From a virus (lineage: Duplodnaviria; Heunggongvirae; Uroviricota; Caudoviricetes), in IMG/VR virus record IMGVR_UViG_2579778660_000003: 9,567 nt of DNA. One strand, written 5' to 3'. Under the pieces are notes generated by a model, which saw nothing but the letters and a program-made list of their open reading frames with translations, had not been told where the DNA came from and made no database searches. Below are positions 1 to 6,947 of the stretch, in pieces (the stretch's first letter is position 1; each line of letters begins with the position of its first letter). A program made the position numbers and the translations under genes.

Positions 1-1053
1 TTACGGGGTAATGCCAACCGCTGCCGCCACTTTGTCGCCACTTGGCAGCGTTGCCAGAGGATTGAAACGGAGCGCCGTTTCTAGATGATCCGGTGCCAGA
101 TGTGCGTAACGCATAGTCATTTTTATATCGTGGTGTCCGAGAATTTTTTGTAAGGCCAGAATGTTTCCACCCGACATCATGAAGTGCGCCGCAAACGTAT
201 GGCGCAGAACGTGTGTGAGTTGACCGCGAGGGAGCACGATAGACGTTTTTTCCATCACGGATAAAAATTGAAAATAGCAGTCTGTGAAGAAATTGAACCC
301 ATCAAGCGCCATGATCTCTTCGTAAAGCTCTTTACTGATAGGGATGCTTCTGTTTTTCTTCCCCTTCGTTCTGACAAAGGTAATTCGGTATTTGGTCACC
401 TGTGAGCGGGTAAGATTTACGGCTTCACGCCAGCGTGCGCCTGTGCTTAAGCATATCTTAACTACCAGTGCCAGAATTGGGTCCTGACGTTTGCAATCAG
501 CCAGCAATTCAACAATCTGCTCATGGGTAAGCCATGCCATCTCTTTTTCTGCGATGGTGAATTTTCGCATGTTCTCCAGTGGGTTCGGATACGACCATTC
601 GCCCAGACGGGATAGTTCGCTAAAAACACTACTTAGATAGCTTTGCTCCAGGTTAATGGTGACCGGGCTTGCTCCTTTCTTCCATTTCTCGCTGAAGTAG
701 ATCTCGCCTGTCAGGCGTTTATCTCGATAGTGGGCAAACATTTTAGAGGTGAGATCGGTTGCAAGAGGATTGCCCAGAGCGTCAACCATCAACAGCAATT
801 TGTCATAGACATGCTGCCCAGCTGTCAGAGATTTACCATGTAGTTTGAACCATAGCTCAACCACGTCTTTCAGTGTTCGACGATCCACTGATTCACCCAG
901 CCAGGGCTTTGCTTCGGTTTCTTCCATCGTGTGGCGCTCAAAAGCCAGTGCTTCGCCTTTGGTGGCGAATTGTTTACGCACACGACGCCCACTTCGTCCG
1001 GCGGGGTAACATTCGCAAAGCCATTTCCCTGTGGTTAGTTTTCGTACTGCCAT
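1..1053 (-). CDS. int: Tyrosine integrase, P2/186 family (complete, 350 aa)
   Basis: ORF on - strand with stop TAA at 3-1 and ATG at 1053-1051. The translation shows the tyrosine-recombinase signature directly: TGARWREA (box I Arg), HVLRHTFA (His-x-x-Arg) and GHHDIKMTMRYAHL (Tyr nucleophile). The N-terminus MAVRKLTTGKW...RKQFATKGEALAFE resembles P2/186 Int as I recall it (not searched). Confidence 0.9.
   Translation of the reverse strand: MAVRKLTTGKWLCECYPAGRSGRRVRKQFATKGEALAFERHTMEETEAKPWLGESVDRRTLKDVVELWFKLHGKSLTAGQHVYDKLLLMVDALGNPLATDLTSKMFAHYRDKRLTGEIYFSEKWKKGASPVTINLEQSYLSSVFSELSRLGEWSYPNPLENMRKFTIAEKEMAWLTHEQIVELLADCKRQDPILALVVKICLSTGARWREAVNLTRSQVTKYRITFVRTKGKKNRSIPISKELYEEIMALDGFNFFTDCYFQFLSVMEKTSIVLPRGQLTHVLRHTFAAHFMMSGGNILALQKILGHHDIKMTMRYAHLAPDHLETALRFNPLATLPSGDKVAAAVGITP
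19..40. repeat. Left copy of 22-bp direct repeat CGCTGCCGCCA(C)TTTGTCGCCA; putative attL core, lying inside the int 3' end
   Basis: Seen in sequence: 19-40 matches 6713-6734 at 21 of 22 positions (C at 30 versus T at 6724), with unrelated flanks. The two copies sit at the expected prophage ends (int 3' end and just after the ogr stop). Confidence 0.5.
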
Positions 1054-1077
1054 AAAAAGCCCTCATATCAGAGGGCT
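1054..1077 (-). terminator. Putative rho-independent terminator downstream of the cargo gene, abutting the int start codon
   Basis: Stem AGCCCTC (1058-1064) / GAGGGCT (1071-1077) with a 6-nt loop. On the - strand the stem is followed by a U-rich tract (plus-strand AAAAA at 1054-1058, running into the int ATG). Not energy-scored. Confidence 0.4.
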
Positions 1078-1135
1078 AAATTTAACTGTATATGTAACCA
1101 GTAATCAATGTGTGATTACTATGAAACATACATTG

Positions 1136-2812
1136 CTAAGCAACATGTAGTTCATCGTTGGCGGAAGTGGCTGCTTTGCGCTCCTGCTCAATAGCTAGAG
1201 ACTCTCTATATTCTTTCGCCTCTGCAAACATTGTCCAGTGGGCGTTGATGTTCATGTCTTCAATAACTGATTTGATTTCTTTTAAATTTACGTTAAAAAA
1301 CTCTTTTCGTGAGTTAATTTTATTGACCTGCTTTTCGTTGAAAACTTTATGCAGATGGTTTTCTAATGATGGTGCATCATCACTATAAATCATCGCATGA
1401 ACATCGAACGAAAAAGGAACACTAGCATCTCCGAGTTCACGAACACGATCAAGTGGTTCAAGGCGGCGTGTCATTCCAATTTTATATACATCTTCGCCAA
1501 ATGAACCAATATTACTAATGATATAGACGTGGCCTGATCTGGTTTGTTGAGCCATAGAAATAGCTCGTTGATTTTTAGCTTCAGCTTCTTCATATTTTAA
1601 CTGTAGTTCAGCTATTTTTTGCTCTAAAGCTAAGCGTTGTTCTTCATTTGCAAGCATAAGTTCTTTCGTTGCTTTATTTATAGCTTGCTGAATAGCTTTT
1701 TCTTCTTTTTCAGCTTCTTTTATCGCTTTTTCATATTCTCTACGAGCTCTTTCCTCTTCACGAAGCTGTTCTTTAATCCTTCTTTGCTCTTCTTTTTCTT
1801 CGAGCATAATTTCATTAACAGCTACACCCCATTTTAGCTCGTTGAGTCTTGCCTGAAGATAGATGTCACTTATTTTTGCGGACCTAAAGGCAGAGCCATT
1901 GTAATTTACTAGTTGAAATGCATCTTTTATTTCTTGGGAAAGTTTTCCAAAATTGTTGTGTTTGACTTTTGATAAAATACTGTCAACTCTTCCATTGAAG
2001 GCATCCAAAACAAAGTTTATGGCAGTATTACGCCTGTTTTGCTCAACATAATCACACGAAGCAGCTTTATTAGTTTTTATTAATGATTTGGTTAACTCTC
2101 TGGCTTTTTGTAATTCCTTGCCTGCATCTGTAAATTCATAATTTTCTGCCAGCTCATCAAGTACACTACGGTTAGGGATGATCCATTCATCACCATAACC
2201 TTCAATTTTATTTTTCATTGATTTTGCAACTGCTTCATATTTTTCTGCAAACTCTTTAGCTTCATATGCTGAACCAGCAATCTCCTTTGCTCTTTCTTCT
2301 GCATCAGAAATAATTTTTACTGCATTGTCATTAGCATTTGAGATTAGCTCATTTGCTTTATTATTAGCATTATCAAGACGTTCTTTGGCTTTCAGGCGTG
2401 CATCGCGAGCGTCTTTGGTGATTGCTATAGCTTCGCTATTAGCGTTGCTTATTGTCATCTGAGCTTGATAATTTGCTTCGTTTACTGTTTTAGCCGCCTT
2501 AATTTGGGCTTCATCTATTTTTTGCTTGGCTATTGAGTCCGCATTTTTTATCTTATTCTCTGCATCCATTACTGCGCTGTGCAATTCTTCGTATTGCCAC
2601 AATGGTGCTGCTCGCCCTTCAAGCTCTAATAATTCTCGTACGGTCTGTGCTAGTTTTTCTTGATTTTCAATCAGTTGGTTAGAAAGGGCTATGTTGTTAG
2701 CTGTCAGGTTATCTATAGCCGCTTTGTGTTTTTTACTTTGTTTAAATAATATTACAGCTAGAACAGGGGCAAGAAATGCTAATAAGAGTATAACGATGGC
2801 AAATGAATTCAT
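1136..2812 (-). CDS. Prophage cargo protein, 558 aa: N-terminal transmembrane helix, long coiled-coil segments, DUF4041-like central region, C-terminal T5orf172/GIY-YIG-like domain; candidate anti-phage effector
   Basis: ORF with ATG at 2812-2810, preceded on the - strand by AAAGGA and a 7-nt spacer (RBS). It starts 20 nt after the cI stop. Residues 4-23 are hydrophobic (FAIVILLLAFLAPVLAVILF). Residues ~40-200 and ~335-415 are Ala/Lys/Glu/Asn/Gln-rich and coiled-coil-like. Residues ~427-517 read GHVYIISN...VYKIGMTRRLEPLDRVREL...PFSFDVHAMIYSDDAPSLENHLHKVF, which has the spacing of a GIY...YIG...R...E nuclease core (T5orf172 type). The DNA is visibly AT-rich relative to the neighbouring genes. 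Confidence 0.85.
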   Translation of the reverse strand: MNSFAIVILLLAFLAPVLAVILFKQSKKHKAAIDNLTANNIALSNQLIENQEKLAQTVRELLELEGRAAPLWQYEELHSAVMDAENKIKNADSIAKQKIDEAQIKAAKTVNEANYQAQMTISNANSEAIAITKDARDARLKAKERLDNANNKANELISNANDNAVKIISDAEERAKEIAGSAYEAKEFAEKYEAVAKSMKNKIEGYGDEWIIPNRSVLDELAENYEFTDAGKELQKARELTKSLIKTNKAASCDYVEQNRRNTAINFVLDAFNGRVDSILSKVKHNNFGKLSQEIKDAFQLVNYNGSAFRSAKISDIYLQARLNELKWGVAVNEIMLEEKEEQRRIKEQLREEERARREYEKAIKEAEKEEKAIQQAINKATKELMLANEEQRLALEQKIAELQLKYEEAEAKNQRAISMAQQTRSGHVYIISNIGSFGEDVYKIGMTRRLEPLDRVRELGDASVPFSFDVHAMIYSDDAPSLENHLHKVFNEKQVNKINSRKEFFNVNLKEIKSVIEDMNINAHWTMFAEAKEYRESLAIEQERKAATSANDELHVA

Positions 2813-2832
2813 TTTAAAATCCTTTTACTATA

Positions 2833-3429
2833 TTAATTCGAGACTATTGTACTTCTTATACAAGCAACCACTTCAATATCAGAAAATGCACATTCAAAGC
2901 TATTCTCTGCTGTTGTAATTTTAATCATTCCTTTAGGAAGCCTTGTGATTTTTCGAATGGAATAGGTTCCGTCGATATTGATTAACCAGTTTCCATCAAG
3001 TACTTCAGAAAATTTTTGATCACAAATGTATGTGACGAGTCCATCCTGAACAACAATTGGTGATGAAAGGTTTGCAGGAAGAAATGATGAATCGAAGACA
3101 TATGAACCGTCTTCAATCATTTTGCCTGCGGCAAGGCGAAACTTAACAAGCTCTTCTGTAGCTGCTGTCAGCGAGCTTTGCTTAAGGCCTTGTCCGGTAG
3201 TTAACCATTTGAGGGAGGTTCCTGTTTCAAGAGCACATTGGATTATCCAGTCAGCAGGAAATGTATCCCGCAAATACCTGTTCGCTAGTGTGCTTTTTGA
3301 TACTTCCAAGTGATCAGCTAAAGCCTGTCGTGTCGTAAAGCCATAGGCTTCGACTAATCGCTCAATCGCAGCCTTACCACCTTTATTGGGATTTATTTTG
3401 ATCTCACTTGGGTACTTTGATGTTGACAT
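2833..3429 (-). CDS. cI: 186-type CI immunity repressor (198 aa)
   Basis: ORF with ATG at 3429-3427 and TAA at 2835-2833. The N-terminal region ERLVEAYGFTTRQALADHLEVSKSTLANRY...CALETGTSLKWLTTGQG matches the phage 186 CI family HTH region as I recall it. It is divergent from the apl/cII operon, as in 186. Confidence 0.85.
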   Translation of the reverse strand: MSTSKYPSEIKINPNKGGKAAIERLVEAYGFTTRQALADHLEVSKSTLANRYLRDTFPADWIIQCALETGTSLKWLTTGQGLKQSSLTAATEELVKFRLAAGKMIEDGSYVFDSSFLPANLSSPIVVQDGLVTYICDQKFSEVLDGNWLINIDGTYSIRKITRLPKGMIKITTAENSFECAFSDIEVVACIRSTIVSN

Positions 3430-3474
3430 ATCTCTTTTGCGATCCTAGTATCAGTTTTGTACCCAATTGGGTAC
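3423..3474 (+). promoter_or_regulatory. Putative rightward lytic promoter (TTGACA-17 bp-TAGTAT) followed by a 16-bp perfect palindromic operator GTACCCAATTGGGTAC
   Basis: Seen in sequence: TTGACA at 3423-3428 (overlapping the cI start codon), a 17-nt spacer, TAGTAT at 3446-3451, then the palindrome at 3459-3474. The 10-mer TTGGGTACTT recurs at 3408-3417 and 3467-3476. Assignment as pR and a CI operator is inference from position in the cI/apl switch region. Confidence 0.4.
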
Positions 3475-3524
3475 TTGTCACGATTACTACAGGCTCACCA
3501 CAAGCCAATAGGAGATGTTGCACC

Positions 3525-3746
3525 ATGACCCCTAACATTTCAATAACTCTGAATACGCCACACGTCACAATCGAGCGTTATAGCGAACTTACTGGTCTTT
3601 CAATCGACACAATCAACGATATGTTGGCGGATGGTCGCATTCCTCGTCATCGTCTTCGTAAAGACAAGAAAAGAGAAAAGGTAATGATCAACCTTGCTGC
3701 TCTTACCGTTGATGCACTTACTGATTGCAATGTTGTATTCAACTAG
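3525..3746 (+). CDS. Apl/Cox-type excisionase and transcriptional regulator (73 aa)
   Basis: ATG at 3525 with AGGAG at 3510-3514 (10-nt spacer). Small basic protein with an HTH-like segment [26 protein letters not shown]. It is the first gene of the rightward operon opposite cI, the position of apl in 186 and cox in P2. The upstream part of the track ORF (from 3408, TTG start) overlaps cI and is rejected. Confidence 0.7.
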
Positions 3747-3778
3747 TTCCATTTTGGGATACATCAGAGGTGTCGACC

Positions 3779-4288
3779 ATGTTTGATTACCAAGTTTCCA
3801 AACATCCACATTTTGATGAAGCCTGTCGTGCATTCGCACTGCGCCACAATCTGGTGCAACTGGCAGAACGTGCGGGCATGAATGTGCAGATTCTGCGGAA
3901 CAAGCTGAACCCAGCTCAACCTCATTTATTAACCGCACCAGAAATCTGGCTGCTTACCGATCTGACTGAAGATTCAACGTTGGTAGATGGTTTTCTGGCA
4001 CAGATTCATTGTCTGCCATGTGTACCGATTAATGAGGTAGCAAAAGAGAAACTGCCGCATTACGTCATGAGCGCAACTGCAGAGATCGGGCGTGTTGCAG
4101 CAGGTGCGGTATCTGGTGATGTAAAAACTAGTGCCGGTCGTCGTGATGCTATCAGCAGCATTAACTCTGTAACACGACTGATGGCGCTGGCTGCTGTTTC
4201 ATTGCAAGCCCGTTTACAGGCTAATCCTGCGATGGCGAGTGCAGTTGATACCATGACTGGCCTTGGTGCTTCATTCGGTTTGCTGTGA
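3779..4288 (+). CDS. cII: CII-type lysogeny-establishment regulator (phage 186 CII homologue, 169 aa)
   Basis: ATG at 3779 with GAGG at 3767-3770. The translation [45 protein letters not shown]...[22 protein letters not shown] closely resembles 186 CII as I recall it. It directly follows the apl-like gene. Confidence 0.8.
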
Positions 4289-4295
4289 GGTGTTT

Positions 4296-4592
4296 ATGCT
4301 GACGAAAGAACCATCATTTGCATCGCTGCTGGTAAAACAAAGCCCGGCAATGCACTACGGTCACGGCTGGATCACGGGTGAGGATGGAAAACGCTGGCAT
4401 CCATGTCATTCACAAGATGAATTGCTGTCTGAATTGACCACGAGGAAACGGAGAAAGTCCAAATGTATGCGGCAGAAAGTGAAGTGGTTTATCAGTTTCG
4501 TTACAGAGGGGAGAGTTATTCAGTACCTGAAGATGATTTGCTCTGTTGCTATCCGTCATTGTCGGGCGATGGCAGTTACTTTTTCACGTTAA
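4296..4592 (+). CDS. Hypothetical early-operon protein (98 aa as drawn), in the position of a fil-like gene; the 3' third is doubtful
   Basis: ATG at 4296 with GAGG at 4287-4290, overlapping the cII stop. The first ~55 residues look protein-like (MLTKEPSFASLLVKQSPAMHYGHGWITGEDGKRWHPCHSQDELLSELTTRKRRK). The remainder overlaps the next, better-supported ORF out of frame and is Cys/Met/Trp-rich. Confidence 0.4.
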   Translation: MLTKEPSFASLLVKQSPAMHYGHGWITGEDGKRWHPCHSQDELLSELTTRKRRKSKCMRQKVKWFISFVTEGRVIQYLKMICSVAIRHCRAMAVTFSR

Positions 4593-4687
4593 AGGATGGG
4601 ACGTTTTTACGGGGAGAGCAGGTTAAAGAGACGATACGAAAAAATGTATCTCCTCTTGAGCGTTACCGTAAGAACAAAGAACGATAG
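4463..4687 (+). CDS. Hypothetical early-operon protein (74 aa)
   Basis: ATG at 4463 with GGAG at 4450-4453 (9-nt spacer). Balanced composition (MYAAESEVVYQFRYRGESYSVPEDDLL...). No family recognised. Confidence 0.5.
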   Translation: MYAAESEVVYQFRYRGESYSVPEDDLLCCYPSLSGDGSYFFTLKDGTFLRGEQVKETIRKNVSPLERYRKNKER

Positions 4688-4709
4688 CTGCGTTTGGGGG
4701 ATATGAAGT

Positions 4710-5051
4710 ATGGCAATTAATGGCGCTGCAGCAACTGTTCCATTAAGCCCCGGTGAACGCCTGAATGGACTTAATCACATTGCGGAGTTAAGGGCGAAAG
4801 TTTTTGGCCTGAATATTGAGTCAGAGCTTGAGCGGTTTATTAAAGATATGCGTGATCCACGGGATATCAATAATGAACAAAATAAACGGGCACTGGCTGC
4901 CATATTCTTTATGGCAAAAATTCCAGCTGAACGTCATAGCATCAGCATTAATGAGCTGACCACTGACGAAAAGCGGGAGCTGATTAAAGCAATGAATCAT
5001 TTTCGTGCAGTGGTGAGCTTATTTCCCAGACGGCTAACCATGCCGAATTAA
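4710..5051 (+). CDS. Hypothetical early-operon protein (113 aa)
   Basis: ATG at 4710, G-rich stretch upstream, same orientation and tight spacing as the neighbouring genes. No family recognised. Confidence 0.6.
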   Translation: MAINGAAATVPLSPGERLNGLNHIAELRAKVFGLNIESELERFIKDMRDPRDINNEQNKRALAAIFFMAKIPAERHSISINELTTDEKRELIKAMNHFRAVVSLFPRRLTMPN

Positions 5052-5118
5052 CCAACTAATGAAATTAATGGCGTAAACCCGCCGGGCATCCATTTATCTA
5101 AATTCAGGAGAATTGATT

Positions 5119-5352
5119 ATGCGTAATATTGAAACCCTCACGACTAAAACCGGACCGGATGACGCAGGGCTTAATATTTTACTGACAGAGGCTCGTCTGG
5201 AAGAACGCCGGGCAAGGGCTGAAGCAATGGCTGCTCGCCTTGATAGCCTGGCGTGTCATATCTCATCCCGCCAGCTAAACCACGTGGAAGCGGCAGAACT
5301 GCTGCGCGTGACTGCTGAAGCAATCCAGAACGAAGCGCAGGAGATCCACTAA
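5119..5352 (+). CDS. Hypothetical early-operon protein (77 aa)
   Basis: ATG at 5119 with AGGAG at 5106-5110 (8-nt spacer). The track ORF begins 6 nt earlier at a TTG. The stop TAA overlaps the next start (TAATG). Confidence 0.6.
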   Translation: MRNIETLTTKTGPDDAGLNILLTEARLEERRARAEAMAARLDSLACHISSRQLNHVEAAELLRVTAEAIQNEAQEIH

Positions 5353-5579
5353 TGGCTGATGCAATGGATCTCGTACAGCAGCGCGTTGAAGAAGAACGCC
5401 AGCGCCATATCCGTGCAGCCCGTGCCAAATCACCGGGCGTGTCACGCGTACTTTGCATTGAATGTGAAGCGCCAATTCCGCCAGCACGACGCCGCGCCAT
5501 TCCGGGAGTGCAGCTTTGCATTACCTGTCAGGAAATCGCAGAACTGAAAGGCAAACATTACAACGGAGGTGCTGTATGA
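5352..5579 (+). CDS. TraR/DksA-family C4 zinc-finger protein (75 aa)
   Basis: ATG at 5352 overlapping the upstream stop. Contains CIECEAPIPPARRRAIPGVQLCITCQE (CxxC-17-CxxC), typical of phage TraR/DksA-like proteins in P2-family early operons. Confidence 0.75.
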   Translation: MADAMDLVQQRVEEERQRHIRAARAKSPGVSRVLCIECEAPIPPARRRAIPGVQLCITCQEIAELKGKHYNGGAV

Positions 5580-6403
5580 GCACCATCCTGAAATGGGCGG
5601 GAAATAAAACCGCCATTATGCCAGAACTGAAAAAATACCTTCCTGCTGGCCCGCGACTGGTTGAACCTTTCGCGGGTTCCTGTGCTGTGATGATGGAAAC
5701 GGATTATCCCAGCTATCTGGTTGCGGATATTAATTCTGATTTAATCAACCTCTATAAAAAGGTTGCCGCTGATTGTGAATCGTTTATATCTCGCGCCAGA
5801 GTTTTATTTGAGATCGCAAACAGGGAGGTGGCTTATTACAACATAAGGCAGGAGTTTAACTGCTCAACTGAAATTACTGATTTCATGAAAGCGGTATATT
5901 TCCTGTATCTCAATCGTCACGGTTACCGTGGTTTATGTCGCTATAACAAGAGCGGGCATTTCAACATTCCCTACGGTAATTATAAAAATCCGTATTTCCC
6001 TGAAAAAGAACTTCGCACATTTGCAGAAAAAGCCCAACGAGCAACGTTTATCTGCGCCAGCTTTGATGAAACGCTGGCGATGTTGAAGGCGGGAGATGTG
6101 GTGTATTGCGATCCGCCATATGACGGTACGTTTTCCGGCTATGCCAACCGGGGCAACGCTGAACGGGCAGCGAAAATGCAGTGGGAACGTCTGCAACGCG
6201 GCGTTGCGTCATTCTCGCTACAACTGGCGGAAGGGCGGGCAGATCTCTACACGGAAATGCCTGTGAAGGTCAGTGGTTTTAAACAGCCGATAGATGATGC
6301 GGAATGGACCATTACGACTCTGACACATACCGTCAGCCCGGATAACGGTTTTACGACCAGTCTGGAGCTTGAAGTGAGGATTGATGATTTCGAAATGGAA
6401 TGA
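5576..6403 (+). CDS. D12-class N6-adenine DNA methyltransferase (Dam-like, 275 aa); the C-terminal ~90 aa are atypical and may be a deletion fusion
   Basis: ATG at 5576 with GGAGG at 5565-5569, overlapping the upstream stop (ATGA). The N-terminus ILKWAGNK...[11 protein letters not shown] and the catalytic DPPY (about residue 177-180) are the Dam family signature. After DPPY the sequence (…[34 protein letters not shown]) does not resemble the Dam C-terminus I remember. Confidence 0.75.
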
Positions 6404-6734: not shown

Positions 6735-6798
6735 TCGTTAAAAAACAGTGCTTCTAACGTCATGATTTTAAACGGCATAAATTTCAGGCAACAAAAAA

Positions 6799-6835
6799 CC
6801 CATCAACCTTGAACCGAAATGGCGGGGGTGATGGG
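6799..6835 (-). terminator. Possible terminator hairpin downstream of ybjL
   Basis: CCCATCA (6799-6805) and TGATGGG (6829-6835) can pair, and on the - strand the stem is followed by a U-run (plus-strand AAAAAA at 6793-6798). The loop is long (23 nt), so this is weak. Confidence 0.25.
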
Positions 6836-6947
6836 CTCCACAAAATGGGGACATCAAAGAAAAGCAGTGGCACTAATTAAGACTGATGCCCTGCGGAAAA
6901 GTTCTGCGGTTGTGCAAAAAAATTTCATTTTCAGGGCAACTTCAGTT

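Follow-up and report, generated by a model that had tools for sequence, protein, structure and literature searches.

The window analysed here is a 9,567-nucleotide stretch of DNA catalogued in IMG/VR as the Caudoviricetes record IMGVR_UViG_2579778660_000003. It contains part of a 186-like prophage of the P2 family, in which a gene for a 558-residue protein lies between the integrase gene int and the immunity repressor gene cI, with all three in the same orientation (Table 1). The ORF of this cargo gene is intact and opens with an ATG at 2812-2810, while the stop codon of cI occupies 2833-2835. Direct reading of the sequence thus leaves a gap of 20 nt, within which an AAGGA motif lies 7 nt before the ATG. 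An earlier sequence-only reading had described a 558-residue ORF placed 20 nt after the cI stop with its own ribosome binding site, and this description holds in each part.

Table 1. Features of the cI-cargo-int region, in positions of the window; residue numbers refer to the cargo protein.
Feature	Position	Strand	Basis or remark
P2/186-type tyrosine integrase, 350 aa	1..1053	-	Pfam Int_N and Phage_integrase; downstream of the cargo gene, same orientation
Terminator-like hairpin: 7-bp GC-rich stem, 6-nt loop, then TTTTT	1058..1077	-	Terminator scan, RNA fold; between the cargo gene and the int ATG
Variable block (cargo gene and most of cI) without DNA homology to related prophages that share the attachment site	1116..3176		blastn
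CDS of the SNIPE/PD-lambda-1 homologue, 558 aa	1136..2812	-	ORF list, PADLOC, PHROG 1847, identical E. coli proteins
T5orf172/MUG113 GIY-YIG nuclease domain, residues 427-520	1253..1534	-	
Codon of Glu484, counterpart of SNIPE catalytic E414	1361..1363	-	Pairwise alignments; invariant in 85 homologues
Long charged linker helix between DUF4041 and nuclease, residues 331-425	1538..1822	-	AlphaFold2; identity to SNIPE
Globular helical domain, residues 195-330, with Pfam DUF4041 at 267-322	1823..2230	-	Pfam, invariant columns, AlphaFold2
Hendecad (11-residue) repeats, residues ~85-190, in the long N-terminal helix	2243..2560	-	Self-comparison, AlphaFold2 model
Single N-terminal transmembrane helix (predicted), residues 4-23, then KQSKKHK	2744..2803	-	Hydropathy
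Shine-Dalgarno-like AAGGA	2820..2824	-	Direct sequence reading; 7 nt before the cargo ATG, within the cI-cargo gap
186-type CI immunity repressor, 198 aa	2833..3429	-	Pfam Phage_CI_repr and Phage_CI_C; immediately upstream of the cargo gene, same orientation

The prophage that houses these genes is incomplete. Positions 1-6142 of the window are 99.8% identical to the 186-like prophage of strain AR_0085, which is intact, and the match includes cI and the switch region upstream of the cargo gene, which are likewise 99.8% identical. Past 6142 a deletion has joined the Dam methylase gene and the 3' end of gene D into a single ORF at 5516-6403, beyond which lie ogr and then the host gene ybjL. This deletion leaves a remnant of ~6.8 kb without replication genes and without any of the virion genes. 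A search of 5426 complete E. coli genomes did not find the deletion junction; the same remnant is present in draft assemblies.

The interval between int and cI is a variable slot. Homology to related prophages in blastn breaks off at ~1116 and returns at ~3177, so that the cargo gene and most of cI fall within the divergent block. In phage 186 itself cI and int abut and the slot is empty. REL606 and many other strains carry a 63-residue ORF at this position, strain 22-245 carries three genes including those for an N-acetyltransferase and an ASCH protein, and Klebsiella phage 4LV2017 encodes a protein of 349 residues there. Comparison of the interval across 186-like prophages had been proposed from the sequence alone as a check on whether it holds variable cargo, and the outcome agrees with that expectation. 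The CI proteins are just 44-55% identical between cargo types, indicating that cargo and immunity type travel together. Of the 5426 complete E. coli genomes, 165 have a full-length copy of the cargo gene, nearly always in the order int-gene-cI, and 1330 contain some of the prophage DNA around it. According to a 2026 survey, the integrase-primase region of P2-like prophages is a minor hotspot with 8% of their defence systems (PMC13586616).

The base composition of the cargo gene differs from that of its surroundings. The GC fraction is 0.369 in the cargo ORF versus 0.489 in int, 0.467 in the rest of the prophage and 0.514 in ybjL, in line with the earlier estimate by eye of high 30s against about 50%. 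The low-GC block extends beyond the ORF into the 3' part of cI (0.378). The recent acquisition that had been deduced from this composition is doubtful. The cI-gene-int module is also present in Klebsiella P2-like prophages, where synonymous sites are saturated, which makes the module old within the phage lineage; low GC was rejected as a dating argument on this ground.

Expression of the cargo gene is most simply explained by transcription together with cI. The lysogenic operon transcribed from pL/pE in phage 186 consists of cI and int. Here, the cargo gene follows cI at a distance of 20 nt, no promoter-like site was detected on its strand from the gene to the start of cI (2812 to 3429), and a terminator-like hairpin follows it. 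Together these features suggest a cI-cargo transcript that is made in the lysogen. The 82-nt spacer between the cargo gene and int folds far better than shuffled sequences (z = -5.0), and its hairpin belongs to the part that is common to prophages with other cargo.

The cargo protein begins with its sole strongly hydrophobic segment. Hydrophobic 19-residue windows are confined to residues 1-27 and peak at residues 4-23 with a Kyte-Doolittle value of 3.16, exactly where a single transmembrane helix had been placed by the sequence-only reading. Given the basic cluster that follows, the positive-inside rule predicts an N-out/C-in topology. The next part of the protein is a stalk built from 11-residue repeats. 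Its self-comparison score is 50 versus 28 +/- 4 in shuffles, with offsets of 11, 25, 36, 47 and 58 residues. The repeats are visible at the protein level only, as Tandem Repeats Finder returned nothing on the DNA of the gene. Searches with the N-terminal 264 residues against NCBIfam and, at low stringency, Pfam gave only sub-threshold matches to DivIVA, ATP synthase b and V-ATPase E. These were set aside as compositional or structural resemblance and not as homology. The same classes of hit are given for the N-termini of homologues with transmembrane helices in the SNIPE paper (PMC13190303).

An AlphaFold2 model of the whole protein, computed from 85 homologues, is of moderate confidence, with a mean pLDDT of 74.7 and a pTM of 0.40. 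It predicts one unbroken helix at residues 3-179, joining the membrane helix and the stalk, followed by a second helix at 181-203. A small helical globular domain at 204-315 includes DUF4041 and leads into a helix of ~105 residues at 316-422 (given as 316-387 and 390-422). The model ends in a beta-beta-alpha-beta-alpha domain at residues 427-526. The two long coiled-coil stretches described earlier correspond to the long helices of the model, one to 3-179 and 181-203 and the other to 316-422. The Pfam profile for DUF4041 (PF13250, now named SNIPE) matches residues 267-322 at 3.1e-12, with 46.6 bits against a cut-off of 27. Residues K282, K284 and R322 of this region are invariant among homologues.

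The C-terminal domain is a nuclease of the T5orf172 type. T5orf172 (PF10544) matches residues 427-520 at 3e-17 and MUG113 (PF13455) matches residues 443-520 at 4e-20, both above the curated cut-offs. The canonical Pfam GIY-YIG profile (PF01541) gives no match to the isolated domain even at E <= 10. Membership of the GIY-YIG superfamily accordingly rests on the T5orf172 and MUG113 matches and on the fold, which in the model has the three-stranded sheet with flanking helices expected of GIY-YIG domains. A sequence search of the PDB with the cargo protein returned no match, which means that no relative with a solved structure is detectable by sequence. The spacing GHVYI...YKIGMTRR...E, from which a GIY-YIG core had first been proposed, is present. 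G427, H428, V429, Y430, K444, G446, R449, R450, E484, N497 and N500 are invariant across 85 homologues that reach down to 47% identity. The catalytic residues suggested at that stage were Tyr430, Tyr443, Arg449/450 and Glu484. All of them except Tyr443 belong to this invariant set. Tyr443, at the second tyrosine position (the 'YIG' motif), is present here and in SNIPE but is replaced by phenylalanine in the consensus of the long-form subfamily. Glu484 aligns with E414 of SNIPE, at which an alanine substitution abolishes defence.

Searches of defence-system models place the cargo protein in a known family. The PADLOC PD-Lambda-1 model PDLC03976 matches residues 122-550 at 4.1e-120, covering positions 43-481 of a 491-position profile, and PDLC03977 matches at 1.1e-116; together the two models span residues 105-551. 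The protein also matches PHROG 1847 at 9e-133. Near-identical E. coli copies, at 99.6-99.9% DNA identity, carry the newer RefSeq name 'SNIPE associated domain-containing protein'. The accession of the closest of these annotated proteins (99.9% DNA identity) is not among the entries in the available part of the SNIPE paper's supplements. The profile searches proposed as a check on the sequence-only reading have thus returned significant matches both to DUF4041 and T5orf172 in Pfam and to PD-Lambda-1 in PADLOC, and the candidate single-gene anti-phage system of that reading belongs to a family that is already known and validated. The system is not new, since its architecture is that of a named and mechanistically understood one.

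PD-lambda-1 was recovered by functional selection as a single-gene system of E. coli ECOR26 and validated in 2022 (Vassallo, PMC9519451). It was renamed SNIPE when its mechanism was worked out in 2026 (Saxton, PMC13190303). SNIPE is a GIY-YIG nuclease anchored in the inner membrane which cleaves phage DNA during injection (PMC13190303). Its topology was derived from PhoA-LacZ fusions and its localisation was also followed by fractionation and microscopy (PMC13190303). DUF4041 of SNIPE binds DNA and contacts the tape measure proteins of siphoviruses, and SNIPE associates with ManYZ, an inner-membrane complex that lambda needs for DNA entry (PMC13190303). Labelled lambda DNA is fragmented during injection and the cell survives, a direct form of defence (PMC13190303). 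An E414A substitution in the GIY-YIG domain abolishes both defence and toxicity (PMC13190303). SNIPE without its membrane helix binds the nucleoid, cuts the chromosome with double-strand breaks and is highly toxic (PMC13190303). A single transmembrane helix is found in 59% of the homologues in the SNIPE/PD-lambda-1 family. The earlier guess that the cargo protein is a membrane-tethered nuclease is consistent with this work, in which a member of the same family proved to be one (PMC13190303).

The SNIPE paper gives no sequence, and the reference was recovered from E. coli 118UI, where a lambdoid prophage has a 1503-bp 'DUF4041' gene that encodes 500 residues. Its identity was verified by primers oDS30, oDS31 and oDS93, which match the termini and the E414 region, and by residues 223, 250, 253, 257, 264, 305, 308, 319 and 414, which are as named in the paper. 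A second copy in phage PhiR26_1, annotated as PD-lambda-1, differs at one residue and passed the same verification. In BLASTP the cargo protein and SNIPE are 50% identical over 293 residues (265-555, E = 4e-77), with E484 on E414. Identity is highest in the nuclease, at 70% over residues 426-525, and falls to 48% in the linker helix (residues 331-425) and 27% in DUF4041 (residues 265-330). The N-terminal region, residues 1-264, has no meaningful alignment to SNIPE. Among homologues of the cargo protein conservation likewise decreases from nuclease to DUF4041 to N-terminus, the order that is also given for the SNIPE family (PMC13190303).

The cargo protein has the full SNIPE architecture and its catalytic glutamate. 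Both are single-gene systems carried by temperate phages, and both have the same order of parts, with a transmembrane helix and basic cluster, DUF4041, a long linker helix and a T5orf172/GIY-YIG domain. The membrane helix of SNIPE at residues 5-25 is followed by KRIKK, parallel to residues 4-23 and KQSKKHK here. The two differ in that the cargo protein is 58 residues longer than the 500 of SNIPE, and its domains are shifted by 70 residues. This shift reflects a region ~70 residues longer at the N-terminus, where residues 1-264 with their 11-residue repeats are unlike the N-terminal 195 residues of SNIPE. The position of W257 in SNIPE, where a W257R substitution strengthened binding to the tape measure protein of Bas14 (PMC13190303), is taken by Lys327 in the cargo protein. 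Genomic placement differs as well. In a lambdoid phage, the gene for SNIPE is flanked by ren and the nin region and is encoded on the strand opposite to its neighbours, whereas the cargo gene belongs to the cI-int operon of a 186-like myovirus prophage. The association of SNIPE with ManYZ and tape measure proteins has been linked to its N-terminal region and the surface of its DUF4041. Given the unrelated N-terminal region and the 27% identity in DUF4041, the phage range and partners of SNIPE, such as ManYZ, are not transferable to the cargo protein.

The cargo gene is under strong purifying selection. Proteins that are 100% identical occur in public E. coli assemblies, including ones encoded in intact prophages. 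Compared with the Klebsiella allele, dN is 0.105 with dS saturated, and by part it is 0.05-0.06 in DUF4041 and the nuclease versus 0.18-0.22 in the stalk and membrane helix. The wider family comprises 3376 clusters (50% identity) at E <= 0.001, and 1406 at E <= 1e-30. Long-form relatives are found across Gammaproteobacteria and in phages of unrelated hosts, and one close long-form relative is encoded by itself in a Shewanella chromosome, away from any prophage genes.

These findings are best accounted for if the cargo gene is a member of the SNIPE (PD-lambda-1) family that provides single-protein, direct (non-abortive) anti-phage defence as cargo of a 186-like prophage, within its lysogenic cI-(cargo)-int operon, a reading to which we assign a probability of about 0.8. 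By the layout of the operon, the gene would be transcribed with cI in the lysogen and its transcript would end at the hairpin before int. Such transcription implies that the host would be protected continuously by the prophage, even as a remnant. By analogy with SNIPE, injection of DNA by a phage, probably a siphovirus, would bring DUF4041 into contact with the tape measure protein and with the incoming DNA, which the nuclease would then shred at its site of entry, and the cell would survive.

An abortive-infection or toxin-type effector has also been considered, in which infection would release or activate the tethered nuclease, leading to cutting of the host chromosome and death of the infected cell. 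That SNIPE turns on the chromosome once its membrane helix is removed (PMC13190303) indicates that such a domain can attack host DNA, and the regulation of the cargo protein could differ as its N-terminal region does. SNIPE itself, however, acts by direct defence, with surviving cells and degraded phage DNA, and the cargo protein shares a well-conserved nuclease and linker with it. With no hint of a cleavable or releasable anchor in the cargo sequence, an effector of this type is unlikely. Still less probable is a function in the phage's own biology, either as a T5orf172-type membrane-associated DNA-binding or nicking protein for DNA entry or exit, or as a selfish homing-type GIY-YIG element. 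The phage evidently does not need the gene, as phage 186 lacks it and most related prophages have other cargo in its place. The gene has also been kept in a remnant without replication and virion genes. The lone relative in the Shewanella chromosome and the defensive role of the characterised homologues (SNIPE and those of Streptococcus thermophilus) also point away from this function, although T5orf172/MUG113 domains occur widely in phage genomes and homologues are numerous in phages of unrelated hosts.

Homology does not guarantee function in this family. Two PD-Lambda-1 variants of S. thermophilus are 98.5% identical, yet one is active and the other inactive (bioRxiv 10.1101/2024.10.22.618286). 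Very few substitutions can thus abolish activity, and the cargo gene, in a prophage reduced by deletion, might be a silent or decaying passenger that has lost its function in this strain. The ORF is nevertheless full length and identical to proteins of intact prophages, it bears the mark of purifying selection, and the upstream cI and switch region has stayed near-identical to that of the AR_0085 prophage. A loss of function is hence improbable, at about the level of a role in the phage's own biology.

Within the preferred reading of SNIPE-family defence, the long-form allele may act on another route of entry or another range of phages, and do so independently of ManYZ. The transmembrane and hendecad stalk unrelated to that of SNIPE and the strongly diverged DUF4041 prompt this suggestion, which is tentative and somewhat doubtful. 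If true, the allele would represent a natural 'adapter swap' with which to test whether SNIPE-family nucleases owe their specificity to the N-terminal region. In any case, the unrelated stalk makes the protein a convenient natural variant for testing the specificity determinants of the family.

For annotation, the gene can be confidently named as a SNIPE/PD-lambda-1 family defence nuclease of a 186-like prophage. Novelty is limited to the different stalk and diverged DUF4041 of this allele, its location in a 186-like immunity operon and its retention in a remnant. The findings leave the current understanding unchanged and their biological interest is modest. A defence that acts on siphoviruses in the tested case is housed here in the immunity operon of a myovirus-type prophage. 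Its retention in the remnant fits the idea that hosts keep useful cargo of decaying prophages.

Comparison with other known systems places the cargo gene among several partial parallels. PD-Lambda-1 of S. thermophilus is called by the same family models and was shown to protect against siphoviruses (bioRxiv 10.1101/2024.10.22.618286), but its host is Gram-positive and its sequence is distant from the cargo protein. Zorya and Kiwa likewise work at the inner membrane while the phage genome is being injected. They differ in being multi-gene systems of unrelated proteins that are thought to sense envelope perturbation, where the cargo gene would provide a single tethered nuclease. The old and tin genes of P2 and the genes at the hotspot between gpA and portal in P2-like phages resemble the cargo gene in that a P2-family prophage expresses them as anti-phage cargo and the content of their slot differs between relatives. 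Their locus is gpA-portal and not cI-int, and the proteins and mechanisms are unrelated. The intact relatives of the remnant also carry other defence genes at the gpA-portal hotspot.

The prophage in the window is a deletion remnant. Its match to the intact 186-like prophage of strain AR_0085 stops at window position 6142, near the junction in a chimeric ORF in which Dam methylase sequence is followed by tail protein D sequence (table). The remnant retains int, the SNIPE homologue, cI, apl, cII, fil, and ogr, and has lost replication gene A together with every virion gene. Draft assemblies (L012 and L013) contain the same remnant; a search of 5426 complete E. coli genomes found no copy. The attR core repeat overlaps the 3' end of the RybB sRNA gene, which lies between rcdA and ybjL; the integration target of this 186-like prophage family therefore appears to be the rybB 3' end.

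Comparison with related prophages that share this attachment site and carry other cargo (L003, L006–L009) places most of cI inside the variable block, at window positions 1116-3176. CI proteins of prophages with unlike cargo share only 44–55% identity over their full length. Given this low identity across cargo types, the cargo gene and the immunity type seem, from sequence comparison, to be swapped together as a single module. A precomputed match to Pfam PF28068 is found on several 85%-identical homologues of the cargo-gene protein, including P0021, P0022, and P0024.

Downstream of the cargo gene, the 82-nt spacer that separates it from int (1054-1135, minus strand) folds into two hairpins with a z-score of -5.0. 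The first is long and imperfect and lies immediately past the stop codon, and the second is terminator-like with a U5 tail running up to the int AUG. The 3' arm of the terminator-like hairpin carries GAGGG, the sole Shine-Dalgarno-like element for int. This arrangement suggests that termination, masking of the int ribosome-binding site, or both hold int at a low level in the lysogen.

Additional genes lie between attL and int in some relatives, namely the prophages of strain 455 and REL606. This interval is a second, small cargo slot, and an attL-int cargo slot has likewise been described in P2-like prophages (PMC13586616). Intact relatives also carry further putative defence genes at the classical gpA-portal hotspot, comprising an ABC-three-component system, a reverse transcriptase (RVT_1), and an AIPR protein, and one prophage can therefore house two defence loci.

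Features of the remnant and of related prophage loci
Feature	Sequence	Position	Strand	Remarks
Fusion ORF	window	5516-6403	+	Dam methylase N-terminal part, tail protein D C-terminal part; junction near 6142
attR core repeat	window	6777-6803		27 nt; overlaps 3' end of RybB sRNA gene
RybB sRNA gene	window	6790-6868	-	Rfam RF00110, 100 bits
Panacea-domain protein and hypothetical protein	L008 (strain 455)	341-1569		attL-int
110-aa ORF	L006 (REL606)	1576-1908		attL-int
gpA-portal hotspot region	L002	17590-20300
gpA-portal hotspot regions	L010, L011, L014	about 1-3100
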